Notes: generated from the letters alone by a model not told the origin. Counted from the stretch's first letter, positions 11,086-27,644 are shown. The stretch is DNA of 32,000 nt from Nitratidesulfovibrio vulgaris str. Hildenborough (GCF_000195755.1 NC_002937.3:2100001-2132000), one strand, 5' to 3'. Made by a program: numbers and translations.

Positions 11086-11167
11086 GCCAATAAAGTCCGT
11101 TTGATGGTGGTCGGGCCTGATATCGTCGACAATCTTTTTTTCGCATCTAAACGCCTTTTACTCCACA

Positions 11168-11380: not shown

Positions 11381-11439
11381 TGGAGTAGCCCCCAATTAGG
11401 CCGGACCTCTCTGCCAACCGAAGAGGTAGTGCTAGAGGT

Positions 11440-11838
11440 ATGTCCAGACAGAGTGCTAAAGAGATTTCCACGGTCGAGGTCGTGACCATGGTTCAACGTC
11501 GTCGTTGGACCATTGCCGAGAAGCTACGGGTAGTTGAAGAGTCGTCTTTACCCGGAATGAGCGTCTCCTTCGTGGCTCGCAAATACGGCATCGCTCCGAA
11601 TCTTGTCTTTCGATGGAGAAAGCTCATGAGCGATGGCGGAAAAGTGGCTATTCAGGCCGACGACCGAGTGGTGAGCGTGGCAGAGGCGAAGGCTTTGAAG
11701 AAGCGCATTCGGGATTTGGAACGGCTTCTCGGCCGAAAGACGATGGAAGTCGAAATCCTGAAGGAAGCTATCGACATTGCACGCGAAAAAAAACTGATCT
11801 CGCGTTCGCCGTTGCCATTCGAGGACGGTTCCCTATGA
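11440..11838 (+). CDS. IS3-family transposase OrfA (HTH protein, InsC-like)
   Basis: 132-aa ORF. ...RRRWTIAEKLRVVEESSLPGMSVSFVARKYGIAPNLVFRWRK...LERLLGRKTMEVEILKEAIDIAREKK parallels IS2 OrfA. An SD-like AGAGG lies before the ATG. Confidence 0.9.
   Translation: MSRQSAKEISTVEVVTMVQRRRWTIAEKLRVVEESSLPGMSVSFVARKYGIAPNLVFRWRKLMSDGGKVAIQADDRVVSVAEAKALKKRIRDLERLLGRKTMEVEILKEAIDIAREKKLISRSPLPFEDGSL
11786..11793 (+). promoter_or_regulatory. A8 slippery run, probable -1 programmed frameshift site producing OrfAB
   Basis: GAAAAAAAAC lies near the 3' end of orfA, and the orfB frame is already open upstream of it (frame open from 11613). Confidence 0.55.
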
Positions 11839-12677: not shown

Positions 12678-13482
12678 CGGGGGCAACTCCAGGTGCAACA
12701 GACCGATCGAAGCGAATGCGGGCCTTAAATGGCTCCTGCGGCATTAGTCCAAACAGCCCCTCTGCCTCGCTCGGAGGCAAAGGGAGATTGAATGTTCTGC
12801 GCGTAGGAATGACAGATTTGAATCTATGGAGTGCCAGCAGCATTGGATGTACTGGTTCAGGTGTTCCTTTAGGAGTAACTTTCCATGCAGATACATACAG
12901 CGCCTCGCGATACGCGATGATGCGCATGGGGGCGATTTCATGGAGCTTGGGCTGGTCCAGGTTTGCTGCAAGATATTCTATTTCACATACATGTTTTTCA
13001 CGAATCGACTGCAGTAGCGCGTCAAGAAAACCATGGAACGGTGTATAATCGATCTGGCCACGGACTGAAACCTGGATGTACGAGTCCATAGCTTGGCATC
13101 GCTGCTCTGGTTCCGGGAGGAGAACAGTTGTCTGGCGGATAGTTCGCGCCACAGATGCTCGGAGATCATCAGGAAGCAAATGCATAACGAGGTCACGGCA
13201 AAGAACAAGCTGGCTAATTTCGGCTGGGGTCAGAGAAACGTGTGGCTGCTTTTTTGGGGCGCAGATGCGATAAAAGCAGGTACGTGAGCGCGTTTCACGT
13301 TCAATCTTGGCTTCGTGGCTTAGTTCGATCTCTTCAAGGAGCCTAGAGATCGTTTGTTTGGAGCATTTGAATATCTGGGCAAGGTCCGGAAGGGAATACC
13401 ATTCCCCAGAGAAAAGTAGGAGGCTGAACAAGCCGAGAAGCTTGCGCGAAGGGGAGGCCTCTTGGTTGATCTTGCGGGGCAT
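12640..13482 (-). pseudogene. brxR: 5' part of the WYL-domain transcriptional regulator (BrxR-like), truncated by IS insertion; the current frame runs 16 codons into the IS
   Basis: The N-terminal wHTH is SLPDLAQIFKCSKQTISRLLEEIE. The central WYL-type beta domain is VCEIEYLAANLDQPKLHEIAPMRIIAYREALYVSAWKV...LALHRFKSV. Native sequence ends at ...FDRSVAP (nt 12692), followed by the IS-encoded GVAPAKPDTLRLLTVG*. It lies upstream of brxA and on the same strand. Confidence 0.8.
12692..12696. repeat. Target-site duplication GGTGC (right copy)
   Basis: See the left copy. Confidence 0.85.
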
Positions 13483-13516: not shown

Positions 13517-13913
13517 AATGCCAGATTATGGAATCAATGAGAAGTAATTTTGCGTTTACTGTCTTGGGCGTATCTACCGGATGTGCAACGGGGTGAGGCG
13601 GTCAGAGGGAAGTAATGAAAAAGGATTTGTAATTCACGATAGGGTCGATCTGCGTTGAGTAGCCCCTATTTGGCCAGTAGCACATTTTTGGGCACAGCTA
13701 ACCGCATACTGTGCAGCGACGGCCGCAGGACTTTCAATCCTCTTTGTCATTCCTGTCGCTGCAGCAAGACGGCACGAAGAGTATTGAGCAATGACCACAA
13801 GGGACACAGCGCTATAATCAACTGCGAGTCTGTATCCAGCAATAACTATTCGTAATTCATTATTTTTTAGATATATATTACACTTTTGAATCCCCAGCCT
13901 TTTACTTAAAAAC

Positions 13914-13962: not shown

Positions 13963-14676
13963 ATGGACAGTCTTCAGTACACCTCCCCAGAGGTCATCGA
14001 CCTCGCCAAGGCCCTCATTGCCGTTCAGCACACCCTGCAACCGGCCATCAAGGACCGTGAGAATCCGTTCGCCAAATCCCGTTACGCCACACTCAACTCC
14101 GTCATGGATTCCTGCCGCGACGCGCTGCTGACCAATGGCATCTGGGTGACCCAGTATCCGGTCCCGGCAGAGGTTGGGCACCTCGGCCTCGTCACCAAAC
14201 TCACGCACGCGGAATCCGGCCAGTGGCAGTCGTCGCTGCTGGTCATGCCCCTGCCCAGATCCGACCCGCAGGGGTATGGCAGCGCCATGACCTATGCCCG
14301 TCGCTACGCGCTTTCGGCCATGCTTGGCATGGTGACGGAGGATGATGACGACGGCGAAGCTGCTTCCAGCGATACGTCTGCCAGACCACGCGCAGCACGT
14401 CAGCCCCGGCAAAAGGCGGAAGGGAGCGCCGCAACTGCCCATGTACAGCCAGTTCCCCACACTGAGTCACGCCCCATGCCGCCAGACAAGGCCCTACACC
14501 CGGCCTTGGCATCGCTGCCAAAGCTGGATGGGGTAACCTACACGACGGCCACCACGCAGGATGGCCGTCTTTGCGTTATGGCGTCCGGCAACACGTCTGC
14601 CAGAAAGCAACTTCTTGGGGCAGCTGGCTTTCGCTGGAACCCGGAGCGAAAGGTCTGGTGGCGTTATGCCGACTGA
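13963..14676 (+). CDS. ERF-family single-strand annealing protein (recombinase)
   Basis: 237-aa ORF with SD AAGGAG. ...KDRENPFAKSRYATLNSVMDSCRDALLTNGIWVTQ...THAESGQWQSS...PQGYGSAMTYARRYALSAMLGMVTEDDDDGE follows the ERF superfamily consensus as I recall it. Confidence 0.85.
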   Translation: MDSLQYTSPEVIDLAKALIAVQHTLQPAIKDRENPFAKSRYATLNSVMDSCRDALLTNGIWVTQYPVPAEVGHLGLVTKLTHAESGQWQSSLLVMPLPRSDPQGYGSAMTYARRYALSAMLGMVTEDDDDGEAASSDTSARPRAARQPRQKAEGSAATAHVQPVPHTESRPMPPDKALHPALASLPKLDGVTYTTATTQDGRLCVMASGNTSARKQLLGAAGFRWNPERKVWWRYAD

Positions 14677-14695
14677 ACACGGTACCAACAGACAT

Positions 14696-14729
14696 GAAGC
14701 GGGGAGGGCCATACGGCTCTCCCCGCTTC
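14696..14729 (+). promoter_or_regulatory. Perfect 11-bp stem hairpin GAAGCGGGGAG-(12 nt)-CTCCCCGCTTC between the ERF and exonuclease genes
   Basis: Read directly from the sequence. There is no clear T tail (ATTCGTATGG follows), so it is more likely an RNA processing/stability or attenuation element than a strong terminator. Confidence 0.5.
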
Positions 14730-14747
14730 ATTCGTATGGAGCAATGC

Positions 14748-16019
14748 ATGCATACCAAGAGCACGCAACCTCATGATGGGGAACTAACTCCAGCCTCCCC
14801 ACTCACCCACAACAACCCGCCCTCTGAGGCCCCTCTCGACGTGCTGCATACAGCACTTTACGCGCATAGCCTTCAGGCGACACAAAGCCAGCTGGGCAAT
14901 CGGAGTGCCTACATCGGCATGTCGGATGTAGGGCATGCGGTCGAGTGTTTGCGATCAGCTGTCGCACGCAAGCTGAGCACTTCCGGCCCCACGACTACGC
15001 CTGCGCTCAAACGTCTGCTGACCCTGCAACGTGGCCACTGGCAGGAGCAGGGCATCATGGAGGCACTTTCCGCCACTGGGCATACCTTCATTCCGCAACT
15101 GGAGATTGCAGCTGCCTTCCATGGCGTCCCGATCAGAGCGCATCTCGACCTCACGCTTATACGATCGAACCCACACCCCTGCATTCAGGTCTGGGAGCTC
15201 AAGAGCAACCAGCGCCTGCCTGAAACCCTCTATACAGCCAACGAGGTACAGCTATACGGCCAGATAGGCTTGTTGCATGCCTGTTGGAATCGACCGTGCT
15301 TCAGCGTTCGGGACGCATCCGGCCATCTCGTCCTCAATCGCAAGACCTTTCCGGAAGCTGCATACCAGCTGTTTCAGATTGATCTGCCAGACTCGCCCGA
15401 GCAAACTGCCGTCGAAGGCTACGTGCTTTCCGTTGCCATGTCGGATGCCAAGGCCTTCGGGCCTTATCCACCTGATCGGAACATGCTTGGAGTCTGCCTG
15501 CGCACAGCCGCTACCCTTTGGCAAACCATGCAGACCGTGGCCACGGGCAGTTTGTCACTTGATGACGTGCCGACATGCCAAGGCTTTCACCCTCTATGCG
15601 ACTGGTGCGATGCCAACGGCGATTGCCCCAAGTTCAAGCCCGTCTGCCAAGACGGCGAACCTATCACCCTAGACGATGAATACGCCGAGTATCTTGCCCA
15701 ACTGACACAGCTGAAGGAACGGAAGCGATCTCTGGAAGGGGACATCGCAGAGATGGAGGACACCCTGCGCAGCGCATGGCACTGCCTGACAAGCGCTGCG
15801 TCCTCTCAATCACCGGGCTGGATAGTAGCGGGCAACTACCGGTTCAAGACAGCAGCCGTACCGGGCAGAAGTACGCTGGACCAGACGATGCTCAAAGAGG
15901 AGGTCACAAAGCTCACACATGACGAGCAGGCGACTGAGGCACTCCTCTCGCATTGCCGCAAGACAGGCGCCCAGCATGAACGGCTGACCATCAGCCCCAT
16001 CAACACCAAAGGAGCATGA
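14748..16019 (+). CDS. Cas4/RecB-like PD-(D/E)xK exonuclease with C-terminal Cys cluster (probable 4Fe-4S)
   Basis: The nuclease motif is HLDLTLIRSNPHPCIQVWELKSNQ (D...ELK). The Cys cluster is C-x8-CDWCDANGDC (CxxCx5C). Coiled-coil-like and C-terminal regions follow. I chose start ATG 14748 because of SD GGAG 6 nt upstream and because it lies after the hairpin. The track start 14571 and the ATGs at 14694/14736 are alternatives. Confidence 0.75.
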   Translation: MHTKSTQPHDGELTPASPLTHNNPPSEAPLDVLHTALYAHSLQATQSQLGNRSAYIGMSDVGHAVECLRSAVARKLSTSGPTTTPALKRLLTLQRGHWQEQGIMEALSATGHTFIPQLEIAAAFHGVPIRAHLDLTLIRSNPHPCIQVWELKSNQRLPETLYTANEVQLYGQIGLLHACWNRPCFSVRDASGHLVLNRKTFPEAAYQLFQIDLPDSPEQTAVEGYVLSVAMSDAKAFGPYPPDRNMLGVCLRTAATLWQTMQTVATGSLSLDDVPTCQGFHPLCDWCDANGDCPKFKPVCQDGEPITLDDEYAEYLAQLTQLKERKRSLEGDIAEMEDTLRSAWHCLTSAASSQSPGWIVAGNYRFKTAAVPGRSTLDQTMLKEEVTKLTHDEQATEALLSHCRKTGAQHERLTISPINTKGA

Positions 16020-16387
16020 CCATGGGATACGTAAGCGATGTGGCGCTGTGCCTCTCAGGAGCAGCGGCCACCAGACTGAATGAAGCTCTCGTAGCGGCCA
16101 GACAGACCATGCCAACCACAAGCTATGAGGATATTGAACGCTTTCTGAAGTCGGCTCTGCAAGGCACGGACACGGATAGCGGCTGTGTCCTCTACTTCTG
16201 GGAAACCATCAAGTGGTACGATGAGTTCACCGAGGTGGGTTTTCTCAACAGGTTCGTCACCTCTTTAGACGGAGAGGAGTACCTGTTTCTCCGCATCGGA
16301 GAAGATCACGACGACAACGTCAGCACGGGCTGGATGTACGACAACCCGTTCGACGTGCGCATCGTGCGGGAAATCCAGTTTGCTTAG
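16016..16387 (+). CDS. Acidic 123-aa hypothetical protein, translationally coupled to the exonuclease gene
   Basis: The ATG overlaps the upstream stop (ATGA 16016..16019). By my count it has about 21 D/E versus about 9 K/R. I recognise no motif. Confidence 0.6.
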   Translation: MTMGYVSDVALCLSGAAATRLNEALVAARQTMPTTSYEDIERFLKSALQGTDTDSGCVLYFWETIKWYDEFTEVGFLNRFVTSLDGEEYLFLRIGEDHDDNVSTGWMYDNPFDVRIVREIQFA

Positions 16388-16671
16388 GAGGATCGTTGCA
16401 TACGGTGGTGCAAGACGCGAAGGATGTGAACCTCATCACGCACCACCCGGTAGGCGACGATATACGGAAGAGCAACCATCACAAGTTCCCGCGTACCGGG
16501 CACTCGCCCAGCTCGACCTCGTTCAGATGAATGGGAAAGAGTGTTGCACGCCTGCAAGATACGGCTAGCAACCTCATGAGCAGTCGCCGCATCGTCCTTG
16601 GCAATGTGCTCCATAATGGCATCCATATCCCTAAGTGCCAGACGGAGCCAGCGCACTCTCCTATTCGACAT
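16384..16671 (-). CDS. ParE/RelE-family type II toxin
   Basis: 95 aa. ...ALRDMDAIMEHIAKDDAATAHEVASRI...RGRAGRVPGTRELVMVALPYIVAYRVVRDEVHILRVLHHRMQ follows the ParE consensus. Its start overlaps the antitoxin gene end by 11 nt. Confidence 0.85.
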   Translation of the reverse strand: MSNRRVRWLRLALRDMDAIMEHIAKDDAATAHEVASRILQACNTLSHSSERGRAGRVPGTRELVMVALPYIVAYRVVRDEVHILRVLHHRMQRSS

Positions 16672-16900
16672 TTACGCCCCACTTCGCAAAAGAACTGGCG
16701 ACTTCCTCATCGGAAGCAAAGTCTCCGGCATCAGCCTGGCGCAATCCTTCAGCAATTGCCGCGACCTGCCAGCTCTCCTCTTCAACATACCGCCTGACAG
16801 CATCGGCAATAAGCCAAGACCGAGTACGGTCGGTGGCCTTAGCCAACGCCTCCAGTTGAAGCTGAGTTTCAGGATCCAGCCGTGTTGTTACAGCGCTCAT
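16661..16900 (-). CDS. Ribbon-helix-helix (CopG/ParD-like) antitoxin
   Basis: MSAVTTRLDPETQLQLEALAKATDRTRSWLIADAVRRYVEEE... is a typical RHH N-terminus. I chose start ATG 16900 because of SD GGAGG 5 nt upstream; the track start 16936 is less likely. Confidence 0.8.
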   Translation of the reverse strand: MSAVTTRLDPETQLQLEALAKATDRTRSWLIADAVRRYVEEESWQVAAIAEGLRQADAGDFASDEEVASSFAKWGVNVE

Positions 16901-16902
16901 AA

Positions 16903-16921
16903 GCACCTCCGCATGTGTACT
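16903..16921. promoter_or_regulatory. Near-perfect inverted repeat ATGTGTAC-tct-GTATACAT (contains palindrome TGTATACA) in the TA / AAA+ divergent promoter region; candidate antitoxin operator
   Basis: Read directly from the sequence. RHH antitoxins usually autoregulate through such repeats. Confidence 0.35.
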
Positions 16922-16978
16922 CTGTATACATTGCAAACATAGAGGTCAAGTTTCCAACCTATCGCACAAGGAGCCACC

Positions 16979-17953
16979 ATGTCCGAAGTACACACGACCA
17001 TCATTGACCTCGACGCCGGAGCCGTTTTCAGCGGCACCCCATCAGGGCGTATCATCAAGGGCTTCGACAAGCCCTGTGCCCACACCCCTAACATCGACCC
17101 GGACTATGTATTCCATGAGTGCAGCCGGGACATCGTCGTATGGCTCATGGACAGCTCAGACCCGCTGTATGTGTTTGGTCCCACGGGAAGTGGCAAGACC
17201 AGCGCCATCAAGCAACTGGCAGCCCGCCTCAACTACCCGGTGTTCGATGTGACCGGGCATGGCAGGCTGGAGTTCCCCGACCTCGTGGGGCACCTGTCGG
17301 TCCGGGACGGAAGCATGGAGTTCCAGTACGGCCCTCTGGCTCTGGCTATGCGGCATGGCGGGATTCTGCTCCTCAACGAGATAGACCTGCTGGAACCGGC
17401 TACCGCCACGGGTTTCAACGGTATCCTCGACGGAGAACCCCTCTGCATTCCCGAGAATGGTGGAGAGATCATCACCCCCCACCCCATGTTCAGGTTCGCA
17501 GCCACTGCCAACACCAATGGCGGCTCCGACGACACGGGACTCTATCAGGGCACCTTACGCCAGAATCTTGCGTTCCTTGATCGATTCTGGCTGTGCGAAA
17601 TGCCGTACCCAGCCCCGGAAGCCGAGAAGGCGTTGCTGGAACGAAGGGCACCGATGCTGCCGGATGACATCAGGACGAGGATGGTGGACTACGCCAATGA
17701 GGTCAGGCGTCTTTTCATGGGGGAAAGCGGAACAACCTATGGTCACAGCATCGAGGTCACCTTCTCGACCAGAACGCTGTTACGCTGGGCTGATCTTACC
17801 GTTCGCTTTCAACCTCTCGCTCGCCAAGGCATCCAGCCGCTTACCTATGCCCTTGATCGAGCTTTGGGCTTCAAGGCCAGCAAGGACACCCGGACCACCC
17901 TGCACGAGTTGGCGCAGCGTCTCTTTCCGCAGCATGCCGCAACGGGGGAGTAG
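16979..17953 (+). CDS. AAA+ ATPase of the MoxR/CobS (AAA_5) type
   Basis: 324 aa with SD AAGGAG. It has Walker A GPTGSGKTS, Walker B ILLLNEID, sensor-like FAATANT and an FLDRF motif. Confidence 0.85.
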   Translation: MSEVHTTIIDLDAGAVFSGTPSGRIIKGFDKPCAHTPNIDPDYVFHECSRDIVVWLMDSSDPLYVFGPTGSGKTSAIKQLAARLNYPVFDVTGHGRLEFPDLVGHLSVRDGSMEFQYGPLALAMRHGGILLLNEIDLLEPATATGFNGILDGEPLCIPENGGEIITPHPMFRFAATANTNGGSDDTGLYQGTLRQNLAFLDRFWLCEMPYPAPEAEKALLERRAPMLPDDIRTRMVDYANEVRRLFMGESGTTYGHSIEVTFSTRTLLRWADLTVRFQPLARQGIQPLTYALDRALGFKASKDTRTTLHELAQRLFPQHAATGE

Positions 17954-18006
17954 ACGGGAGCGGCCCTACCGCACCACTGGATGCGACCGCTCCCCTTGCG
18001 GATTTC

Positions 18007-18303
18007 TTGGATAACCTGCTGGCAACAGCACGCAAAGACCCAAGCCTTCTTCTTCGACACCCCATCTACGTCCATCTCGACAAGCCGACATCCCATGGGT
18101 GGAAGTTCTGGAGCGCTGCCACGACTCAGGACGGCATCACCCTTCGCTGGGCTCGCTATGGTCAAAAGGCACAGGAGCACGTCCTCACAACCGGACGCTG
18201 CCGCTGCGCAAGCCCTTTTGAGGAGCTTCGCTATCGGGTTCTGGACAAGCTCCGCAAAGGCTACCAGCCCGACATGAGCAAGTCCAAGCTCCCCTCTGTC
18301 TAA
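18007..18303 (+). CDS. WGR-domain protein
   Basis: GWKFWSAATTQDGITLRWARYGQKAQ...LRYRVLDKLRKGYQP fits the WGR pattern (KFW / W-G/A-R-x-G / KGY). The start is uncertain: TTG at 18007 with no SD, and the frame is open further upstream. Confidence 0.6.
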   Translation: MDNLLATARKDPSLLLRHPIYVHLDKPTSHGWKFWSAATTQDGITLRWARYGQKAQEHVLTTGRCRCASPFEELRYRVLDKLRKGYQPDMSKSKLPSV

Positions 18304-18371
18304 TTCTATCCGCACAACTCTGAAATCTGGAACGATCGTGTGCCAAAAAGGATCCACGCGAGGAGTTACTC

Positions 18372-18647
18372 ATGACACCACAGACCTTCCCCTTCTCCCA
18401 CTCCATCGAACTCGTCAGGCCAACACCCCGTGGCAACGACTACCTCTACTGGCGGGCTGAAGCCTGCAAGGACGCTCTCAGAATCTGCACATGGTGCGCT
18501 GATGCCTCTGGAGTCCCCGTCGAAGGGCGGGTCATCCAGACCATCGCCTGCGCTCAGTGCCGCTCCGAAGACCCCGTGCTGGAGATGTGGTTCCGGGCGT
18601 CCCACAAGATCGACCGCATGGCATTCCACATCACACAAGGCTGTTAG
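18372..18647 (+). CDS. Small Cys4 (zinc-ribbon-like) protein, paralog 1
   Basis: 91 aa with SD GAGGAG. It has CTWC ... CAQC pairs and the C-terminal motif CAQCRSEDPVLEMWFRASHKIDR. Confidence 0.65.
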   Translation: MTPQTFPFSHSIELVRPTPRGNDYLYWRAEACKDALRICTWCADASGVPVEGRVIQTIACAQCRSEDPVLEMWFRASHKIDRMAFHITQGC

Positions 18648-18656
18648 GAGGCAGAC

Positions 18657-18944
18657 ATGGACCCTCTGAAGGAGTTACGCATCTACAGCTGTGAGCACGA
18701 AATCCACCTAGTCCACCGGGACAGGTTCGACGTGCTCGCCGCCCACTGGAGAGCGCGAGCTGAAACACACCAGTTGGTCATCATGGAATGGAAAGGCTTT
18801 CCCGATGACCCCACACCGAGGGGTGAAATACGCACGCAGCACATTGAAGCTCGAGAATGCACCGACTGCGACCCCGTGCAGGAACTCTGGCGACAGGCTG
18901 GAGACAGGATACAGCGACACTACCGTTTCAAGGACGGAGAGTAA
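18657..18944 (+). CDS. Small Cys-containing protein, paralog 2
   Basis: 95 aa with SD AGGAGG. CTDCDPVQELWRQAGDRIQR aligns with the C-terminal motif of the preceding gene. HEIHLVHR / HWRARAE aligns with HSIELVR / YWRAEA. Confidence 0.65.
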   Translation: MDPLKELRIYSCEHEIHLVHRDRFDVLAAHWRARAETHQLVIMEWKGFPDDPTPRGEIRTQHIEARECTDCDPVQELWRQAGDRIQRHYRFKDGE

Positions 18945-18945
18945 C

Positions 18946-18975
18946 GAGCCCCTCAAATGAGGGGCTTCTTCATTT
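18946..18975 (+). terminator. Hairpin AGCCCCTC-aaat-GAGGGGCT followed by TCTTCATTT
   Basis: 8-bp GC-rich stem, 4-nt loop and a moderately T-rich tail. It lies between the paralog-2 stop and the next start. Confidence 0.45.
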
Positions 18976-18989
18976 GCATGGAGGACATC

Positions 18990-19985
18990 ATGACCACAGA
19001 CATCACTGTTCTGGAAAGTCTCATGGCCATTCACCTCGACGTGAACATCTGGACGGCCAGAAAGAAACTGAGCCCTGCCGACTTCGGCGGGGCCGAGCTT
19101 CCCCCCGAGGATCTGGCATCTCTGGGAAGCAAGAGGGTTTGTGATCCTGAAGACCTGAAGGTCTTTGGCACATTGAAGGCCCGTGCTGTGAGCCTTCTCG
19201 ACCGTCATGGCATACGTTTTCTGGGCGGATGGGCCATCCCCCACGACCGGGCGGAAGAGATCGGTGCAGAGCTCGCAACGATACGTGACGCGTTCATGGA
19301 GGCCAAAGAGACCTTTCTTGCCCGGTATGACGAAGCCGTGCAGGAGTGGATCACCCGCCATACGGGATGGGAGCAGATCATTGCCAGTTCCACCGTTGGC
19401 GCGGATTACGTTCGAAGCCGTATGGGCTTCCGCTGGCAGGTGTACCGCATCATGCCGCCTGCACTACCACAGAGCGTAGAAGAGGGGCTGTGCGAAGAGG
19501 TTGTCGGTCTGGGGTCACGCCTTTTCGGGGAGGTGGCCAAGGCCGCCACAGAAGCGTGGCACAAATGCTATGCAGGCAAGACAGAGATCACCCGCAAAGC
19601 GCTCTCGCCTCTGCGCACCATACACCAGAAGCTATCGGGGTTGACCTTCGTCGAGCCGCGTGTGGCTCCCATCGCCGACCTGTTGCAGGTAGCGTTTGAA
19701 AGCCTGCCCAAGCGGGGCAAGATCGAAGGAGCTTCCCTGCTCATGCTACAGGGAATCGTGGCTCTCTTGCGGGATACCGGTGCGCTTGTGGAGCACGGCC
19801 AGAAGATCCTTGAAGGAGCATCTCCCCAAGGGCTTCTGGCCATCCTTGGTGGCCCTGCCGCTGCATCTGACAGTGTGGCTGATGACCTCGCTGTCGAGAT
19901 TGATGATGTGGTTGATGACCTCGCCCCGGCACCTGTATTCCCTGGCACCCCGCAGCCTACGCTACCAAGCTACGGGCTCTGGTGA
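18990..19985 (+). CDS. DUF3150-like protein (function unknown)
   Basis: I chose start ATG 18990 because of SD GGAGGA 4 nt upstream. LESLMAIHLDVNIWTARKKLSPADF...LPPEDLASLGSKRVCDPEDLKVFGTLKARAVSLLDRHGIRFLGGWAIP resembles the family I recall as DUF3150, which is usually found beside CobS/CobT-like genes. Confidence 0.7.
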   Translation: MTTDITVLESLMAIHLDVNIWTARKKLSPADFGGAELPPEDLASLGSKRVCDPEDLKVFGTLKARAVSLLDRHGIRFLGGWAIPHDRAEEIGAELATIRDAFMEAKETFLARYDEAVQEWITRHTGWEQIIASSTVGADYVRSRMGFRWQVYRIMPPALPQSVEEGLCEEVVGLGSRLFGEVAKAATEAWHKCYAGKTEITRKALSPLRTIHQKLSGLTFVEPRVAPIADLLQVAFESLPKRGKIEGASLLMLQGIVALLRDTGALVEHGQKILEGASPQGLLAILGGPAAASDSVADDLAVEIDDVVDDLAPAPVFPGTPQPTLPSYGLW

Positions 19986-20046
19986 TTCGCTGGACAGCAT
20001 GCTGGAAGGCGTTTACCTAGCAACAAGATACGCGAGGATAGCTTAC

Positions 20047-20793
20047 ATGACTCACGATGCATTCCAGACAGTCGATGCGCTGAAGGCCAAGCTAGATTCG
20101 CATCGTCCTTTGCCTGCAGAGGCCGTCCGCCAACTCCGGGCGGACATGGTCTTGCGGTACACCTTTCATTCCAACGCCATTGAGGGGAACACGCTTTCGC
20201 TCATGGAGACCAAGGTTGTACTGGAAGATGGCATGACCATAGGTGGCAAGTCTGTTCGTGAGCATCTTGAAGCCATCAACCATGCCGAGGCCATCAGCTT
20301 CCTTGAAACCCTCGTTGATGCGGGAGCACCGCTTGACGAGCGCAGCCTCAAGGAGCTGCACCAGTTGGTGTTTCGCGGCATATCCGACAGTGCAGGGCGT
20401 TATCGTACAGGGAACGTTATCATTTCCGGTGCCGGGCATACACCGCCAGATCATCTGCATGTGCAGCACCGGATGGACGCCTTCTTTGATTGGTATGGTC
20501 AGGAAGAGATGCAACTCCATCCCGTGGAGCGAGCAGCCCGAATGCATGCCGATCTGGTGGTCATCCATCCGTTTACGGACGGTAACGGGCGTACATCGCG
20601 CCTTGCCATGAATCTGGAACTGATGCGAGCAGGCTTCCCCACTGTCGTCATTCCCGTCGAGCAGCGAGCTGCCTACTACGAGAACCTTGATGCCGTAGGG
20701 ACCCGGCAGGATTACGAGCCATTCATCCGGCAGGTTGTCGCCCTTGTCGAGCACAGCTTTGCCCCCTACTGGCCGCTACTTGGCCTAGCCTGA
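20047..20793 (+). CDS. Fic-domain protein (probable AMPylase), with N-terminal SxxxEG inhibitory-type motif
   Basis: The active site HPFTDGNGRTSR (HxFx[D/E]GNGRxxR) is intact. The upstream FHSNAIEGNTL contains S-x-x-x-E-G. I chose start ATG 20047; the 19696 track start would overlap the preceding gene by about 290 nt. Confidence 0.85.
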   Translation: MTHDAFQTVDALKAKLDSHRPLPAEAVRQLRADMVLRYTFHSNAIEGNTLSLMETKVVLEDGMTIGGKSVREHLEAINHAEAISFLETLVDAGAPLDERSLKELHQLVFRGISDSAGRYRTGNVIISGAGHTPPDHLHVQHRMDAFFDWYGQEEMQLHPVERAARMHADLVVIHPFTDGNGRTSRLAMNLELMRAGFPTVVIPVEQRAAYYENLDAVGTRQDYEPFIRQVVALVEHSFAPYWPLLGLA

Positions 20794-20814
20794 GAACCAC
20801 AGCCATACGCCAGC

Positions 20815-20846
20815 AAAGCCCCGGAGCATCCGCTTCGGGGCTTTTG
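20815..20846 (+). terminator. Hairpin AAAGCCCCG-(12 nt)-CGGGGCTTT + TTG after the Fic gene
   Basis: 9-bp stem read directly from the sequence, with T residues at the 3' side. It abuts the SD of the next gene. Confidence 0.5.
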
Positions 20847-20861
20847 CATGTTGGAGGAACT

Positions 20862-22463
20862 ATGCACGATTCACGAGCTGTCATGCGCTCGCTGCCCCTG
20901 GTCGCAAGTATCCTGGGGCGCAGATATGGCATTCAGGTGCAAATCGGCGGAACCGAAGCCTACACCGACGGCAAGACCATTCATCTTCCGTCGCTTCCCG
21001 TTGAAGACAACAATCTGCTTCCCCTCGTTCGTGGCTATCTCGACCACGAAGCGGGGCATGTCCGGGAAACGGACTTCGACGTGTTGCGGGAAGCCACGCT
21101 TACCCCGCTTGAAATGCACATATGGAACATCATTGAAGACTGGCGCATCGAAAACAAGCTGGCGTCGATCTTTCCCGGGTGTCGTCAGAACTTCGACTGG
21201 CTCATCACCCATCTCTTCGGCTCAGCTACCCCCGACGTATCCGCGACTGGGGATGCGTCCTGCATTCTCAACTGGATGCTCCTGACGGTGCGATGCTGGG
21301 ATGTCCCCGCGCTCAGCACCGAGCGCGATACCATCGCATCCATGGTGGATGCGGGATTCCCCGGCGTCCGACAGCGGATTGCCCCACTGCTGAACAAGGT
21401 ACGGACGGATTGCGACGCAACAGCTGATGCCATTCGCCATGCACGGATAATCGTTCAAGCGCTTCGAAAGCAGGTGGCTCACTCAAGCCCTTCGGCGAAT
21501 ACCCAGCGCAAAACGACGAAAAAGACCATTGTGCGAGAGCCATCTGATGGCCCAGCAGCGGTGGAAGAGGGCTCTGGGCACTACACCCCGGAGCGCATCC
21601 GGGCCATGGAAAGCCTGCTGGAGGCCAACGAAGACACACTCCCCAAAACAATGGGCGCAGTCTTGGCTGAGGCCCTGCAACAAGCACACGGCACATCATG
21701 GTCCACAGCTGTTGCCGTAGAGCAGCCACGGCTGGCCTACCCGCTGGATGCGGATGCCATAGCGCAGGCTCGCGCCGCCTCCATGGCCCTTAAAACACGG
21801 CTGCATGGGCTGGTACAAAGTGCCGTCGTAACGCGGTGCGCCACGGGTAGGCGTGGAAGGCTGGACCCCAGCCGTCTTCACCGGCTTTCCGTGTCAGATG
21901 GGCGTTTGTTCCGCCAACGTGGAGAACGCCACGGCATCAACACGGCGGCACACATCCTGTTGGACAGCTCCGGCTCCATGTCCGGTTGCATGACGCTGGC
22001 ATCGACTGCGTGTCATGCCACGGCCAGTGCTCTGGCAGCCTGCGGCGTCAACGTGGGGCTGACGGCCTTTCCGGGGCACTATCTCACGGCTCAGGCCAAC
22101 TGGGCGAGTGTGTCTCCACTCATACGCCATGGGCAACGAGTGCATCCCAAGGTCAACGTGACCTCTGGCGGAGGAACTCCCCTTGCGGAGTCACTCTGGT
22201 GGACCATGCAGACCATGTTGCCCCTTCCAGAGTCCCGTAAGCTCATCCTGATCATCACCGATGGCGACCCCGACTCGGGAGTGCAAGCGGAAGAAGCACT
22301 CGTCGGTGCAGCACGTGCCGGATTCGAAGTCTACGGAATCGGCATCATCAGCACCGCCATTCTCTCCCTCCTGCCAGGCAATAGCTTGGTCATTTCCAGC
22401 ATGGGGGAACTGGCTCCTGCCATGTTTACGCTTCTGCAAAAGGCAATGCTGCGCTGCGCCTGA
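20862..22463 (+). CDS. HExxH-motif N-terminal domain + C-terminal von Willebrand factor A domain protein (CobT-like)
   Basis: I chose start ATG 20862 (SD GGAGG 20853..20857). It has LDHEAGHV (HExxH, nt 21045..21059) and a downstream EDWRIE. The VWA MIDAS is LLDSSGSMSG (nt 21964..) plus LILIITDGDPDSG. Confidence 0.8.
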   Translation: MHDSRAVMRSLPLVASILGRRYGIQVQIGGTEAYTDGKTIHLPSLPVEDNNLLPLVRGYLDHEAGHVRETDFDVLREATLTPLEMHIWNIIEDWRIENKLASIFPGCRQNFDWLITHLFGSATPDVSATGDASCILNWMLLTVRCWDVPALSTERDTIASMVDAGFPGVRQRIAPLLNKVRTDCDATADAIRHARIIVQALRKQVAHSSPSANTQRKTTKKTIVREPSDGPAAVEEGSGHYTPERIRAMESLLEANEDTLPKTMGAVLAEALQQAHGTSWSTAVAVEQPRLAYPLDADAIAQARAASMALKTRLHGLVQSAVVTRCATGRRGRLDPSRLHRLSVSDGRLFRQRGERHGINTAAHILLDSSGSMSGCMTLASTACHATASALAACGVNVGLTAFPGHYLTAQANWASVSPLIRHGQRVHPKVNVTSGGGTPLAESLWWTMQTMLPLPESRKLILIITDGDPDSGVQAEEALVGAARAGFEVYGIGIISTAILSLLPGNSLVISSMGELAPAMFTLLQKAMLRCA

Positions 22464-22629: not shown

Positions 22630-22697
22630 GTTGGGGACCTTTTATCGCGATCGCCATCGCCGTACTGAATGTCGTCAAGGAGAGCATCGATGACTGA
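22626..22697 (+). CDS. Possible 23-aa hydrophobic peptide
   Basis: MSWGPFIAIAIAVLNVVKESIDD. A strong SD AAGGAGG lies 5 nt upstream. It overlaps the next ORF by 8 nt. Confidence 0.4.
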   Translation: MSWGPFIAIAIAVLNVVKESIDD

Positions 22698-22872
22698 CCT
22701 CGAATCCAAGGACAAGGGGCTGAGCAAGGTGTGGGTGTTTCTTGGTGGCTGCCTGACAGGTGTCGCAGGTGTATTCGTGGCAGCTATGCTTTCGGAGGAA
22801 AGCGATACGGAGATGCCTCGCTCTGAAGATGAACTGTTGGCATTGCCAGAAGGACACCCCTTCGAGGAGTAG
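22690..22872 (+). CDS. 60-aa single-pass membrane protein with acidic tail
   Basis: MTDLESKDKGLSKVWVFLGGCLTGVAGVFVAAMLSEESDTEMPRSEDELLALPEGHPFEE, with SD AAGGAG 7 nt upstream. The track lists the same frame from 22669. Confidence 0.55.
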   Translation: MTDLESKDKGLSKVWVFLGGCLTGVAGVFVAAMLSEESDTEMPRSEDELLALPEGHPFEE

Positions 22873-23166: not shown

Positions 23167-25602
23167 CTACGCACAACGGTAGTAGGTGGACTTGCCGCGG
23201 CCTTCCCTTATGATGATCTCTCGGTCCGAAAGATTTCGGAGTATGCCACCAAGCTTGTCCGCCTTGAGGCCGGTCCGTGTTTCCAATTCAGACCTGGATC
23301 TCTTCTTCTCTTTCAGCGCACTGAACACCTTTTCCTCGTCTGGCGACAGGGAGTCCATGTCGACATCCCGGGTGGGAACAACGGGGGGCTCCACGGCCCT
23401 CGGCTCGCTGCTCAACCCTTCAGACATAGGCGATTGCCCGACATCTGCGAGAGAGCCCTCGATATGGCGCCACCCACTACCTACCGGAAGGTGGTAGGTA
23501 CAGGATTTCCTTTCAAGTTGGGGCGCGGCCTTGCACTTGGCAACGGTCATTCGCACGACCGGACCGTCGGCTTGACAAATCTTCTCCAACTGAGGGCTCT
23601 TGTCCTCTAGGCTTGCCAACTGCTCGCGCCCATCCAGGCGGATGACGTTCTGGGACAAACTAGCAAGATCACTAGACCCTTTGAAGCTTGTTCCATCCTT
23701 GCCGGAGTGATGCACAATGATGACCGCGATCCCGGCTTGTTCTACTTGTCGAACGAAGTTGAACAGCCCATCGGCGTTACTCTTGGCCGCGCTAGGAGCT
23801 AGCGACAACAAGTTGTCGATGACAAGCACATCCGCCTTCGCTTGGCGGAGTAGCTCGATGACCTCTCGCGAGCATCCCCCATCCAGAATGTTCAAGCCGG
23901 ATTGGGGCACGATACTCAAATTCTGATTCACGAGTACTTGGGCATCCGGGTTGTCTTGAAGGAGTTGGTCACAGCGCGCCTTGAAGTCTTCCTTGCCAAC
24001 CTCGCCATCAAGGTAGCAGACGCGGCGAGGGGCCATCGCAGGCAGTCCGAATGCGTTAAAACCACCAGCCATAGCCAGGGCCAGTTGGATAGCGACCCAG
24101 CTTTTGCCTGCATTGGAGCACCCCCAAATCAGTGTCGTGTACCGAGACGTGATCACACCATCCCAGCTCAGCTCAAGCTGAGAGCCATGTTCTCGTCCCC
24201 GGATGTCATCCAGACGAATAAGCTCTAACGTGCTCTCGTTTGTGCGTATTTCCTCCGCAGGCTCAGGCACAAGCTCCATGGATCTCATCCATGCCCGATA
24301 CTCCCCCACCGGGATAGCTTTGCGCAACACATCGCGAGCAAGCTTTGAGGGCAATTCAACACGATCAAGGTACACCGCCCTCCCCCACAGCTCCTTTTGC
24401 CACGGTCCATGGGGGCAAGAGGCATCAAGGACCGGCATACTAGGGGCAATAACAGGCCATGGGTAGATACTCACTCTTGCCGCGCCTTCCTTTGCGCAAC
24501 GCTTCGCCCATTCTTCGGCTCCCTTCAACTTCTCGCGAGTGGAGCCGGGGACGATCACGACAGGATGCCCCGCAAGATCTTTATAGTGCAGGGCGTCAAA
24601 AGCCTCCGCCCCTCCAAAGCATCCGGAGACAATGACCCCCACGCGTTCAAAGACTTTGGCTTCCCGTGCCATTTTGCGAAAATGCATGGCTACACGCATA
24701 TCAAGGCAGAGCAGCACGGGAGCCTCCCGATCGTCTGCCATCCTCGTACGAGAATACAGCCAAGCAGAGGCTGGAGTCGCACCGATACGGAGCACAGGAC
24801 GCCCTTCGAAATCCGTTCGGCCAGCGACCAGAAAGAACTCCTTGCTCCCGTGCCGATAGCAACACACAGCCTGCTCAATGGCTCCCGCGAAGTCATGGAT
24901 GTAGTCCTCGTCGGCAAGCGTGTAGGGAGAGTCTTTTACGAAGAGCTGCTTCGGAATCTTCTTCGCAACGCTACTGATGCGCGGCGACAGGGGAGGCCGT
25001 GCATTGGCCCCAACCGGAAACGTTCGAAAGCAGTACTCCGGTTTCAAGCCGAGCAGCTCTCCCACGACTAGAGTCGCCTGAAGAGGACTTCGATTCAGGC
25101 TTGAAGACGCCAGGGAGATTAAGGACTCTTCCCTCTTGTCAGTCTTGGAGACCCGGCTGCTAGCGACGTCAATGCCCAAATCCATCAATACCTGCTGGCG
25201 CCCTCCGGCATCGAGCATTGAGCATTCCCACTCGACCAGCGAGCGAAATACGTCTGTATAGAAAGTCGCCATGAATGCGGACGGAAGATTTGACTTGTCA
25301 ATCTTGTCCACTATCTGCTCCACCTGCGTGGATCTTCTCGGGGCTCCTTGAGATAGCTCCGCAGGATACAGGCTACATGCACGAAGAGACGCTCCTGCGG
25401 GTCGACCTCTCTCCCATGAGGCGCTCCGTTTCATCCTAACCTGCGCATCTGGCTGGGGGAACGAAGTGGTTCTTGTAGGAGTGATGTCAATGACAGCAGG
25501 CTCACCAAGCAAAGATTCCTTCCTGAGCGTGCAGGAACTGGTTACCGGTTGCCCGGTTGTGCTAGCACGTTCTATCATGTCTTCAATGCGCGGCTCTTCC
25601 AT
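23167..25602 (-). CDS. RepA/DnaB-like RecA-fold helicase (AAA_25-type) with long N-terminal region and C-terminal winged-helix; replication initiator/primase-helicase of the mobile element
   Basis: 811 aa with SD AGGAG. It has Walker A WGCSNAGKSW, CYLDGE, Walker B DVLVIDNL and IIVHHSGKDG. The C-terminus LSPDEEKVFSALKEKKRSRSELETRTGLKADKLGGILRNLSDREIIIREGRGKSTYYR is wHTH-like. The central region (res ~290-390) is Toprim-like in layout, but I could not find the acidic motifs. Confidence 0.8.
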   Translation of the reverse strand: MEEPRIEDMIERASTTGQPVTSSCTLRKESLLGEPAVIDITPTRTTSFPQPDAQVRMKRSASWERGRPAGASLRACSLYPAELSQGAPRRSTQVEQIVDKIDKSNLPSAFMATFYTDVFRSLVEWECSMLDAGGRQQVLMDLGIDVASSRVSKTDKREESLISLASSSLNRSPLQATLVVGELLGLKPEYCFRTFPVGANARPPLSPRISSVAKKIPKQLFVKDSPYTLADEDYIHDFAGAIEQAVCCYRHGSKEFFLVAGRTDFEGRPVLRIGATPASAWLYSRTRMADDREAPVLLCLDMRVAMHFRKMAREAKVFERVGVIVSGCFGGAEAFDALHYKDLAGHPVVIVPGSTREKLKGAEEWAKRCAKEGAARVSIYPWPVIAPSMPVLDASCPHGPWQKELWGRAVYLDRVELPSKLARDVLRKAIPVGEYRAWMRSMELVPEPAEEIRTNESTLELIRLDDIRGREHGSQLELSWDGVITSRYTTLIWGCSNAGKSWVAIQLALAMAGGFNAFGLPAMAPRRVCYLDGEVGKEDFKARCDQLLQDNPDAQVLVNQNLSIVPQSGLNILDGGCSREVIELLRQAKADVLVIDNLLSLAPSAAKSNADGLFNFVRQVEQAGIAVIIVHHSGKDGTSFKGSSDLASLSQNVIRLDGREQLASLEDKSPQLEKICQADGPVVRMTVAKCKAAPQLERKSCTYHLPVGSGWRHIEGSLADVGQSPMSEGLSSEPRAVEPPVVPTRDVDMDSLSPDEEKVFSALKEKKRSRSELETRTGLKADKLGGILRNLSDREIIIREGRGKSTYYRCA

Positions 25603-26384: not shown

Positions 26385-27503
26385 ATGAGAAAGAGCAGGT
26401 TCACCTAGGAGCAGATCATTGGGATTCTCAAGCAGGCCGAAGTCGGGATGACGGTAGCGTCTCTGTGCCGACAGCATGGGATGTCCACGCAACGTTTTAC
26501 AAGTGGCGTAGCAAGTACGGCGGAATGGACGTGTCCGAGGCGCGTCGCTTGAGGGGGCTTGAAGAGGAGAACCAGCGGCTGAAACGGCTAGTGGCCGAAC
26601 AGGCTCTGGACATTCAGGTGCTTAAGGAAGTCCCAGAAAAAACGGGTAAAGCCCGCCGAACGCCGCTTGGCCGTGCGTTATGCCATCGATGTGCATGGTT
26701 GTTCCGAGCGGCGGGCCTGTCAGCTAATGACGGACCTTCAGACGGCCACCAGCCTAGATCGCGACGGCGAATTGCGCATCCGTCTGCGTGGTCTGGCCGA
26801 GGAACGTCGGCGCTTCGGCAGCCCACGGTTGCAGATCCTATTGTGCCGTGAAGGCATCGTCGTGAACCACAAGCGCGTCGAGCGAGTGTATCGGGAGGAA
26901 GGGCTGTCGCTCAGACTCAAGCACCGCCGCAAGCGGGCAAGCCATCTGCGAGAGGTGCCGCATGGCTCCACGGAGCCGAATCAGCATTGGGTCATGGACT
27001 TCGTGAGCGACTGCCTGATAAACGGCCGCAGGCTTCGCATGCTGACCGTGGTGGACCTCTATGATCGTTGCTGTCCGGTGATCGAGGTGGATCATTCGCT
27101 GACTGCGAGCGTGTCGCGCGGTCGTGGAGCGGCTGAACGCTCTGGGACAGTGTCCGGTAGTCATCCGAACCGACAACGGTCCGGAGTTCACAGGTAAGGC
27201 CTTGGACCTGTGGGCGCATGGACAGGGAGTAAGGCTGGAGTTCATCCGTCCGGGCAAGCCGACAGAAAACGGCCACATCGAAAGCTTCAATGGCCGGTTT
27301 CGGGAAGAGAGCCTGACTGCCCAGGCTTTCTTCTCACTCGCCGAGGCAAGACGGGTTGTCGAGGCGTGGAGGCAGGATTACAACACGTGCGCCTGCACAC
27401 TCCCCTCGCCGGTATGAGCCCAGAGGAATACCAAAGAGCCGTGAAGGGTGGAAACACTGAAGTCGCGACTACGAACTTATCCCTGGCATACTTGGCGGGG
27501 TAA
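26385..27503 (+). pseudogene. IS407-like transposase orfA/orfB remnants
   Basis: orfA reads MRKSRFT*EQIIGILKQAEVG..., with an in-frame TAG at 26406..26408, then a frameshift before ...ATFYKWRSKYGGMDVSEARRLRGLEEENQRLKRLVAEQALD. An A6 slippery run lies at 26637..26642. The orfB pieces lie in three frames (AVRYAIDVHGCSERRACQL...HWVMDFV...VVDLYDRCCPVIEVDHSLT / VVERLNALGQCPVVIRTDNGPEFTGKA...GKPTENGHIESFNGRFREE...WRQDYN / SLAGMSPEEYQ). Confidence 0.85.
27323..27338 (+). repeat. 16-nt exact direct repeat AGGCTTTCTTCTCACT, copy 1 (inside the IS orfB remnant)
   Basis: Identical 16-mer at 27629..27644. Confidence 0.9.
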
Positions 27504-27628: not shown

Positions 27629-27644
27629 AGGCTTTCTTCTCACT
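27629..27644 (+). repeat. 16-nt exact direct repeat AGGCTTTCTTCTCACT, copy 2 (at the GC-drop boundary, overlapping the orphan-gene stop)
   Basis: Identical 16-mer at 27323..27338. Confidence 0.9.

Follow-up and report, generated by a model that had tools for sequence, protein, structure and literature searches.

A conserved ATPase–DUF3150–CobT-like gene trio in a Nitratidesulfovibrio genomic island and its possible role in the evasion of host defence

Seven genes that follow one another on the same strand in a genomic island of Nitratidesulfovibrio vulgaris str. Hildenborough raise the question of whether they act for the host cell, as a defence system, or for the mobile DNA that carries them. 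They lie at positions 16979-22463 (+ strand) of a 32,000-nucleotide stretch (NC_002937.3:2100001-2132000), which is called the window below and from whose first letter all positions are counted. A preliminary description made from the sequence alone had presented the seven genes as one uncharacterised mobile-element system, possibly a conflict module. Neighbourhood analysis showed that three of the seven recur together, namely the genes for an AAA+ ATPase, a DUF3150 protein and a CobT-like protein with a von Willebrand factor A (VWA) domain. With a probability of about 0.5, we consider this trio to be a backbone defence-evasion or establishment machine of mobile elements, with a build like that of the CobS-CobT-CobN and NorQ-NorD complexes.

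All seven open reading frames (ORFs) were found where they had been placed earlier, and the junctions between them measure 9-68 nt. Shine-Dalgarno-like sequences were located 5' of the ATPase, Fic and VWA genes and of one DUF3150 start. Ribosome-binding sites put the start of the Fic gene at 20047 and that of the VWA gene at 20862; the true start of the DUF3150 gene, judged by the position of the ribosome-binding site, is probably 18978 or 18990. The window belongs to a Nitratidesulfovibrio genomic island adjoining a tRNA-Met gene. An identical DUF3150 protein in the same gene order was found in the assembly GCA_036778195.1, and 99%-identical copies are present in two Nitratidesulfovibrio genomes; a search of E. 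coli genomes and plasmids for near-identical DNA gave no match.

In order to compare gene neighbourhoods, 79 loci with a DUF3150 relative were used (7 plasmids, 2 places with the identical protein and 70 genome loci). Plasmid records with DUF3150 number 1158, of which 971 are predicted to be conjugative, and the seven plasmids were picked at even steps down the tblastn ranking of these records, which widened the range to 23% DUF3150 identity. The genome loci, one genome per species, were obtained with two peptide patterns favouring three clades; an alignment of eight DUF3150 sequences was too divergent for the genome scan and one of three sequences was used, so that the 70 loci are biased to these clades. 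The ORFs of the collected loci were then searched with profiles built from the window proteins.

The comparison revealed a core of fixed order. The ATPase gene was located upstream of the DUF3150 gene on the same strand in 64 of the 65 loci with enough upstream sequence, and the VWA gene downstream of it, again on the same strand, in all 69 loci with enough downstream sequence. Among the loci with both flanks, the complete order ATPase-DUF3150-VWA on one strand was seen in 60/61. These loci span IncC, IncT, Vibrio, Pseudomonas, Xanthomonas and Methylomonas plasmids and islands as well as the islands of Desulfovibrionaceae, and the seven sampled plasmids are diverse, being of the MOBH type or untyped. 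The expectation of a recurrent mobile-element module built on a CobS-like/CobT-like pair with DUF3150 was borne out. The idea that all seven genes form one co-conserved system was not, since the genes for the WGR-like proteins and the Fic enzyme vary among loci.

The first core gene (16979-17953, + strand) encodes a CobS/NorQ-class MoxR AAA+ ATPase of 324 amino acids (aa) with matches to Pfam AAA_5 (1e-18) and CbbQ_C (4e-13). Walker A, the Walker B glutamate, sensor-1 N178 and the arginine finger R202 are invariant in 73 ATPase homologues, and the AAA+ assignment made earlier was confirmed. The protein also matched the phage "CobS" family phrog_249 (3e-59), and its sequence matches in the PDB were midasin AAA modules (1e-46), CobS (5e-23), CbbQ and NorQ. 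In addition, an alignment of 288 aa (E = 1e-91) shows 47.6% identity to WP_000085162.1, which is encoded by the IncC plasmids R16a and pKAZ3. With this identity, it is a counterpart of Vcrx089 of IncC plasmids and of s067 of the SXT element.

Note that genes of this type have a published function in IncC plasmids, where the operon vcrx089-093 was named hde (host defence evasion) and vcrx089 encodes an AAA_5/CbbQ_C ATPase (PMC7498323). The deletion of vcrx089-090 from pVCR94 reduced transfer into hsdR+ V. cholerae O395 by 25-fold; this defect was gone in a ΔhsdR recipient, and making the recipient express the genes complemented it (PMC7498323). According to a second report, the same deletion in pKAZ3 led to 424-fold more restriction by EcoBI and 906-fold more by EcoKI, and among the other systems named there a smaller, about 10-fold effect was given for EcoRV and EcoVIII (PMC11602122). 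AntiDefenseFinder includes vcrx089_090 as a two-gene system (PMC11724313). It was also reported that a single transcript runs from Pvcrx087 through vcrx094 and that ssb, bet and exo of the IncC plasmid repaired CRISPR-Cas breaks (PMC7498323).

The gene order supports the relation of the trio to these elements. In pKAZ3, the gene of the ATPase WP_000085162.1 is followed by those of a 302-aa protein, ssb, bet, exo, DUF3150 and VWA. The revised annotation of SXT gives ssb, bet, orfZ, exo, s067 (CobS), s088, s068, s069, s070 (CobT) and radC (PMC10838148 supplement), and s067, s068 and s070 belong to the conserved core of SXT/R391 elements (52 genes), being shared with IncA/C (PMC2791158). The trio of the window corresponds to s067/s068/s070 of SXT and, by synteny, to vcrx089/094/095 of IncC; from its position and the statement of orthology with IncC, we infer that s068 encodes the DUF3150 protein. 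An ordered same-strand trio linked to annealase and exonuclease genes, that is, an hde-type block, is present in the window.

The likeness to the IncC and SXT blocks includes the ATPase type (AAA_5 plus CbbQ_C), an annealase and an exonuclease on the same strand, the order DUF3150-VWA and the location in the element backbone; SXT has the same three families in the same order after ssb-bet-exo. However, the blocks differ in several respects. Vcrx090 of IncC occupies the slot in which the island has three WGR-like proteins. IncC uses Bet and lambda Exo, whereas the island has ERF with a nuclease of the Cas4 type; a homologue of ssb was not detected in the stretch that was searched. The recombination genes lie inside the trio in IncC and upstream of the whole trio in the island. 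SXT contains the intervening genes s088 and s069 and then radC with a primase-like gene. Finally, the published vcrx089_090 system excludes the DUF3150 and VWA genes, which are invariant partners in the present comparison. The block type and the anti-restriction role of the related IncC ATPase pair are thus already known, and the window holds a divergent, differently accessorised member; the new point concerns the invariant partners of an ATPase of the anti-restriction type, namely DUF3150 and a CobT-like protein whose zincin motif is intact.

The preliminary description, which took the genes to have no demonstrated function, therefore has to be amended in one part: the gene pair of a relative, ATPase gene included, has an anti-restriction role. 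The match to a module with a known role is partial, through the IncC relatives, and the role itself is one of those that had been listed. Of the three roles proposed at that time, defence, anti-defence and establishment, the last two are best supported by the IncC genetics, while conservation in the backbone and a phenotype of the opposite direction speak against the first. A deletion scan of Rts1, the IncT prototype, covers the trio (relative transfer 0.21) and was considered as a functional test. It is uninformative, because the CobT-like VWA gene of this plasmid is split by IS2 (L083, 8030-11192), and the trio is probably inactive in Rts1.

What kind of machine the trio could form is suggested by its third gene (20862-22463, + strand). 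It encodes a CobT-like adaptor of 533 aa consisting of an N-domain with HExxH...ED.R.E, a linker, a shaft-like segment and a VWA domain with a MIDAS (metal-ion-dependent adhesion site), and it matched the Pfam families CobT N-terminal, CobT_C and VWA. The HExxH, the EDWRIE-type motif (ED.R.E) and the MIDAS (D.S.S/TDG), all noticed previously, are kept in 66-67 of 67 unique homologues, and the Pfam CobT N-terminal family was matched by 12 of 17 N-domains (best E-value 7.6e-15). Modeling with AlphaFold2 gave a predicted local distance difference test score (pLDDT) of 78.7. In the model, the N-domain (residues 10-208) contains one helix, a small sheet and about eight helices, followed by a disordered linker, helices, a low-confidence loop (323-357) and the VWA domain. 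The top fold matches were the NorD VWA domains of NorQ-NorD complexes (5.7e-9), the whole-protein search being dominated by the VWA domain. A search of the PDB with an N-domain profile and two single N-domain sequences returned no peptidase and no true CobT. There was no direct fold or sequence match of the N-domain to a peptidase; the order of its secondary structure elements fits the CobT N-domain, which is M48C-like. As modeled, the 533-aa protein has the domain layout of CobT, namely an M48C-like N-domain, a linker, a shaft and a VWA domain with MIDAS.

In the CobT structure, the N-domain with a peptidase M48C-like fold docks on the lid of CobS, the shaft reaches into the ring of CobS, and the two CobT domains have CobN between them, close to the MIDAS (preprint 10.64898/2026.07.21.739949). 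NorD similarly inserts a finger into the NorQ pore (PMC13036017). The CobS-CobT-CobN (PDB 9UKA and related) and NorQ-NorD systems share with the trio a MoxR motor with a CbbQ_C-type lid and a third partner, together with an adaptor whose M48C-like N-domain is followed by a disordered linker, then by a segment that inserts into the pore, and by a VWA domain with MIDAS. They differ in the partner, which is CobN or nitric oxide reductase in the known systems and DUF3150 in the window, and in context, which is cofactor synthesis for CobS-CobT-CobN and the DNA metabolism of a mobile element here. The HExxH and the downstream glutamate are kept in the window family; true CobT N-domains were not recovered from the PDB for comparison.

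This similarity could also be read literally, the trio being a metal-insertion chaperone of the cobaltochelatase or NorQ-NorD kind that matures a metalloprotein, as the annotation "cobalamin biosynthesis protein CobT" implies. We regard this as very improbable. The sequences and folds do resemble CobS, CobT, NorQ and NorD, and source annotations call homologues CobT or ChlD. However, the scores are far under the equivalog cut-offs (86.1 versus 558.55 bits for CobS, TIGR01650; 28.7 versus 759.05 bits for CobT, TIGR01651). CobN was found neither in family scans of the window proteins nor in annotated or Pfam-labelled neighbourhoods, no nor or cob genes were seen in the window or in the annotated neighbourhoods inspected, and the trio is distributed over plasmids, integrative and conjugative elements, and islands. 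A tblastn search of plasmids for true CobT returned mobile-element homologues and the "CobT" genes of phage-plasmids only.

SSU5-like phage-plasmids and jumbo phages contain the same MoxR/CobS-like and vWA/CobT-like pair with a peptidase-like head on the vWA protein. They differ from the trio by having no DUF3150 gene, and in SSU5-like elements the CobT-like gene comes first. In jumbo phages, where the MoxR-vWA pair has a metallopeptidase at the N-terminus, it has been proposed to be a virion-assembly chaperone (PMC7824862). In Escherichia phage PhiR41_1 (L082, 6944-14082), a gene for a 702-aa CobT-like protein and then one for a CobS-like ATPase are located directly upstream of the DNA polymerase III alpha gene, and a DUF3150 gene is missing.

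The second core gene (18957-19985, + strand) encodes a DUF3150 protein of 342 aa. The assignment proposed earlier agrees with the Pfam match, which covers the full length (9.5e-102). The protein comprises a helical domain of about 270 aa and an acidic disordered tail ending in GLW. The length of the tail in 70 unique homologues ranges over 23-176 aa, or 43-176 aa if only full-length copies are counted; its isoelectric point is about 4.1, and the C-terminal residue is W, F or Y in 68. The AlphaFold2 model is all-alpha with a disordered tail. A Foldseek search of the PDB with this model gave nothing below an E-value of 0.25, and a sequence profile search of the PDB gave nothing. Phage collections contain hardly any DUF3150. 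At E ≤ 0.001, the family falls into 1493 representative clusters, and among the 150 listed almost all members are stand-alone proteins of about 170-500 aa. One member of the representative library (P0383, 5185 aa) has 16 separate stretches matching residues 52-165 of the DUF3150 query and is apparently a giant protein in which a portion of the DUF3150 domain is repeated.

A mechanism can be put forward from these data. Homology and modeling show the ATPase to be a CobS/NorQ-class MoxR motor, whose solved relatives are hexamers. They also show that the CobT-like protein has the layout of the adaptor of this motor, and its shaft-equivalent segment may enter the ring pore by analogy with the segment that does so in the solved CobST and NorQD complexes. 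The N-domain of this putative adaptor keeps the zincin motif, HExxH and a downstream glutamate, in the homologues examined. DUF3150 may be a third subunit or a client placed between the N-domain and the MIDAS, like CobN, and its acidic tail with a C-terminal aromatic residue could be a docking or bait element, either a MIDAS ligand or a DNA mimic. After entry into a new cell, as the IncC genetics suggest, the ATP-driven machine would remodel and possibly cleave a host target. Restriction could be relieved in this way, type I enzymes being the best candidate, and breaks would be repaired by the adjacent ERF/Cas4-like pair. The slot after the ATPase gene may hold lineage-specific specificity factors, such as Vcrx090 in IncC and the WGR-like triplet in the island.

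A more specific form of this mechanism is tentative and rather doubtful. In it, the trio would be a complete ATP-driven, CobSTN-like targeting protease: the AAA+ ring would drive the CobT-like adaptor, and the putative M48-type head of the latter would cut host restriction complexes or take them apart, the targets being type I HsdR/M or other defences that translocate DNA. Equally doubtful are the details that the DUF3150 tail serves as a DNA-mimic bait or MIDAS ligand and that the hypervariable small proteins encoded after the ATPase gene set the target specificity. If true, this would provide a mechanism for a validated anti-restriction system and would be a case of a chelatase-type motor repurposed for counter-defence.

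Several observations weigh against a defence-evasion machine of this build. The published anti-restriction unit is Vcrx089 plus Vcrx090, and the window contains no homologue of the latter: a phmmer search with the 302-aa IncC query found such homologues in L001, L007 and L066-L068 and none in the window. The published phenotypes come from IncC plasmids, and the host here is a delta-class sulfate reducer. Transposon-insertion sequencing named only vcrx089-093 as depleted (PMC7498323); this screen compared Cas+ and Cas- recipients and was therefore not designed to detect restriction evasion. The deletions of s067, s068 and s070 lowered the laboratory transfer of SXT at most 10-fold (PMC2791158). 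A literature search for DUF3150 found no paper testing or discussing the DUF3150 and VWA genes. As for the build, confidence in the DUF3150 model is low (pLDDT 62.6), the structure search with it gave no match, and the placement of DUF3150 in the CobN position is by analogy only. Proteolysis by the N-domain of the putative adaptor is conjectural; in true CobT the homologous domain acts in docking, and the preprint on the CobS-CobT-CobN complex reports neither zinc nor cleavage (10.64898/2026.07.21.739949). Lastly, the gene neighbourhood fits a role in recombination or replication equally well.

The trio is regularly embedded among genes of DNA recombination or replication. A gene of the recombination type (recombinase, exonuclease or SSB) was found within 10 kb upstream of the trio in 48 of 52 loci. 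Its type changes by clade: ERF and a Cas4-like nuclease in this island; Bet or RecT, lambda Exo and SSB in the IncC, Vibrio and Methylomonas elements; a 3'-5' exonuclease and a helicase in Pseudomonas; and a PD-(D/E)XK nuclease in Xanthomonas. In the window, the same-strand block begins with the gene for an ERF-family single-strand annealing protein (13963-14676, + strand; Pfam ERF 5.6e-34), which is found upstream of the trio in 21 loci. A promoter-like site precedes it at 13791-13818; the promoter and terminator scan of the window gave sites at a frequency not above that of shuffled sequence. Next to ERF is the gene for a Cas4-like PD-(D/E)XK exonuclease (14694-16019, + strand) with a C-terminal C-x6-C-x2-C-x5-C cluster. 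It had a weak match to a PHROG Cas4-domain exonuclease (5e-4) and none in Pfam; its motifs were read from the translation and its start follows the gene call in L008. Homologues of this exonuclease were found in 16-18 loci, directly after ERF wherever both were detected.

Such linkage, which persists though the type of gene changes, raises the possibility that the trio is an accessory of recombination or replication, a chaperone that assembles, loads and recycles the annealase, exonuclease, SSB and primase-helicase of the element on DNA that is entering or replicating, and that its effect on restriction is indirect, via the repair of breaks. The radC and primase-like genes after s070 in SXT, the AAA_25 helicase-like gene downstream of the block in the window island, and the position of the CobT/CobS-like pair beside DnaE and a 5'-3' exonuclease in SSU5-like phage-plasmids are consistent with this. 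So is the DUF3150 tail, which resembles the tips of element-encoded SSBs in kind (acidic, with an aromatic end), its sequence not being matched to the SSB of the same element. Moreover, the phenotype of Δ(vcrx089-090) with a CRISPR target was partly polar on ssb/bet/exo (PMC7498323). Nevertheless, in the experiments without a CRISPR target, Δ(ssb-exo) left the transfer of pVCR94 into a restricting host unchanged, whereas the drop caused by Δ(vcrx089-090) was lost in the ΔhsdR recipient (PMC7498323). The strong effect in E. coli on EcoKI and EcoBI, with only EcoRV and EcoVIII at about 10-fold among the other systems named for this deletion (PMC11602122), also argues for a specific target rather than general repair. 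The recombination accessory is an explanation to which we give a rather low, though not negligible, probability.

The proteins encoded between the ATPase and DUF3150 genes had been described as one WGR-domain protein and two paralogous Cys-motif proteins of about 90 aa. The first ORF (18007-18303, + strand), which has a TTG start, matched Pfam WGR below the cut-off (18.1 versus 22 bits; E = 0.003). Seven of its 13 relatives match Pfam WGR over the full domain length (best E-value 7e-4), and none was seen to reach the cut-off; the family profile found no match in the PDB. Homologues are present in 19-21 loci, all of Desulfovibrionaceae, and the protein is a clade-specific accessory. The ORF is annotated as a gene in L080 and L081 and not in L008. 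It is considered a real gene because it is conserved, its TTG aligns with the ATG starts of homologues, and it is annotated in two sister genomes. The WGR assignment thus stands as a likeness, the score being sub-threshold.

The second and third small proteins (18372-18647 and 18657-18944, + strand) are paralogous, as had been noticed (31% identity, E = 2e-7), and sister loci have one copy, the duplication being specific to this island type. The second has no family match alone and is linked to the WGR-like family by profile-profile comparison. A zinc-binding role for these proteins was ruled out, since their cysteines are not conserved among homologues; the lone invariant Cys column is common to the WGR-like ORF too. 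Comparison of their family with the WGR-like profile using hhalign gave 94.9% probability (E = 4e-8). Because the cysteines are not conserved and hhalign joins both proteins to the WGR-like ORF, the region is read, from sequence comparison, as encoding three fast-evolving WGR-like paralogues and not one WGR and two zinc-type proteins. Identity between sister copies is 79-87% for the ATPase, 63-73% for DUF3150, 48-56% for the VWA protein and 35-42% for the WGR-like proteins. The latter evolve fastest, a pattern expected at a host-element interface, which suggests that they could be specificity factors. The slot after the ATPase gene is filled by small proteins that are unrelated from clade to clade: Vcrx090 in IncC, s088 in SXT, proteins of 100 aa in Methylomonas and of 221 aa in Xanthomonas, and the WGR-like proteins here. 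Vcrx090 and the other proteins of this slot were also examined as hidden WGR domains, and the hhalign comparisons were negative.

Another gene that had been counted as a member of the system encodes a Fic enzyme of 248 aa (20047-20793, + strand; Pfam Fic 2.7e-24). The active site HPFTDGNGRTSR is intact, as reported before, and the N-terminal inhibitory motif SNAIEG (SxxxEG) is present in the translation. This combination of motif and canonical active site assigns the protein to class II, SoFic-like Fic enzymes. PADLOC matched it to SoFic (1.9e-32) and PDC-S04 (8e-36). SoFic itself is a single-gene candidate defence system, a class II Fic AMP-transferase, and the window Fic shares with it the model match, the inhibitory motif and the active site. 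It differs in length (248 aa versus 361 model positions), in score (41 bits versus an NCBIfam equivalog cut-off of 550 bits) and in its location as a cassette inside the trio. The Fic gene was found within the trio in nine loci, and in addition in L081, and is absent from most loci. In L016 and L017, whose flanks are 92-94% identical, the corresponding spacer is 65 bp in the former and about 907 bp, with Fic and a hairpin, in the latter. This presence and absence between near-identical copies removes Fic from the system proper. The Fic copies of different islands are 74-78% identical, a divergence about the same as that of their neighbours. Because of this divergence and the clean insertion or deletion of the cassette, Fic is a passenger of long standing that the block can do without.

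A strong hairpin with UUUUGC after it (20815-20846, + strand; -30.2 kcal/mol, z-score -4.05) marks the 3' end of this cassette and lies just 5' of the VWA ribosome-binding site. A matching hairpin sequence closes the Fic cassette of L017. The hairpin could attenuate the expression of the VWA gene. In L015 (11860-19720) and L020, about 8 kb between the Fic and VWA genes encode an efflux pump of the resistance-nodulation-division type (AcrB-like protein and membrane-fusion protein), two TetR regulators and PagL; the spacer between the DUF3150 and VWA genes is accordingly a site of cargo insertion. A ParE toxin (16384-16671; Pfam ParE_toxin 6.7e-16) and a ribbon-helix-helix (RHH) antitoxin (16661-16936; RHH_1 3.4e-6) are encoded on the opposite strand (16384-16936, - strand) as an insert that varies among loci and separates the ATPase gene from the recombination genes, and they were undetected in the sister loci L012 and L017. 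Both Fic and ParE/RHH are facultative cargo outside the core.

The remaining genes of the block are conserved in the related islands. A protein of 121-123 aa is encoded after the exonuclease (16016-16387, + strand; same position in 14 loci) and a small hydrophobic protein of 60-67 aa after the VWA gene (22669-22872, + strand; same position in 9-11 loci), both without a family match. They are followed by a gene for an AAA_25 (RepA/DnaB-like) protein convergent with the block (23167-25602, - strand; Pfam AAA_25 3.9e-22, with a weak PHROG primase/helicase match), which belongs to the island backbone and has the same position downstream of the block in L080, L014, L016 and L021. A truncated IS3-type transposase fragment (HTH_21 and partial rve) was noticed at 26667-27197, between this helicase-like gene and tRNA-Met. 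Directly beside the tRNA-Met gene (29162-29238, - strand), a 439-aa ORF (27643-28962, - strand) lies in a patch of 38% GC. It was considered as the island integrase; with no Pfam or PADLOC match, it is not demonstrably one, and neither an integrase nor the ends of the island were found. No transfer genes were found in the examined part of the island.

On the other side of the block, the island carries a type 1 bacteriophage exclusion (BREX) system on the opposite strand (1222-13482, - strand), including PglX (1222-4698), BrxC (6300-9851), BrxB (9863-10474) and BrxA (10474-11085). The space between pglX and brxC contains a candidate HEC-02 pair, namely a HEC-02B-like protein (4703-5242; 3.8e-67) and a HEC-02A-like ATPase (5239-6303; 1.5e-117). 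An IS3-family transposase gene (11613-12677, + strand) parts brxA from that of a WYL (BrxR-like) regulator (12640-13482). A PDDEXK_3 nuclease gene is located at 755-1222, downstream of pglX.

The position next to BREX had been taken as a hint of a defence function, and a host-protective system can be imagined in which the AAA+/VWA pair senses infection and releases an effector, Fic or the zincin domain, as in the MoxR-vWA proposals. The Fic matches to SoFic and PDC-S04, the presence of BREX with its nested HEC-02 pair less than 6 kb from ERF, and other defence-like cargo in sister islands agree with such a system. We nevertheless consider it quite unlikely. The sister islands keep the string of ERF, exonuclease, ATPase, WGR-like, DUF3150, VWA and small protein genes, several of them followed by AAA_25, and swap the flanking cargo, which comprises PglZ/BrxL with an AAA_13 protein in one island and SNIPE, NOV_C and a NERD helicase in another. 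The trio thus belongs to the backbone of the island and BREX to the cargo beside it, so that the adjacency of BREX, though real, is no evidence for the function of the trio. Counterparts of the trio in SXT/R391 elements likewise belong to the 52-gene conserved core and not to the variable hotspots (PMC2791158). PADLOC gave no meaningful match for the ATPase, DUF3150 and VWA proteins, only trivial P-loop hits, and the Fic gene is missing from most loci and near-identical sister copies. The relative that was tested works the other way round, helping DNA that enters a cell to withstand the defences of the host. The MoxR-VWA conflict systems are probably a different family; they need a VMAP component, and the paper describing them mentions neither CobS/CobT nor DUF3150 (Kaur et al. 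2020). Effector domains of the VMAP, caspase or trypsin type were not found in the seven proteins by Pfam, with no dedicated VMAP profile run.

IncC plasmids and SXT/R391 elements spread multidrug resistance. Their vcrx089-090 genes protect up to about 900-fold from type I restriction, and the comparison of the trio points to DUF3150, the HExxH motif and the MIDAS as testable parts. A detector that demands a homologue of Vcrx090 is likely to overlook the greater part of the family. In addition, the window calls for caution in the reading of such islands: backbone genes of a mobile element that stand beside BREX should not be taken as defence genes.

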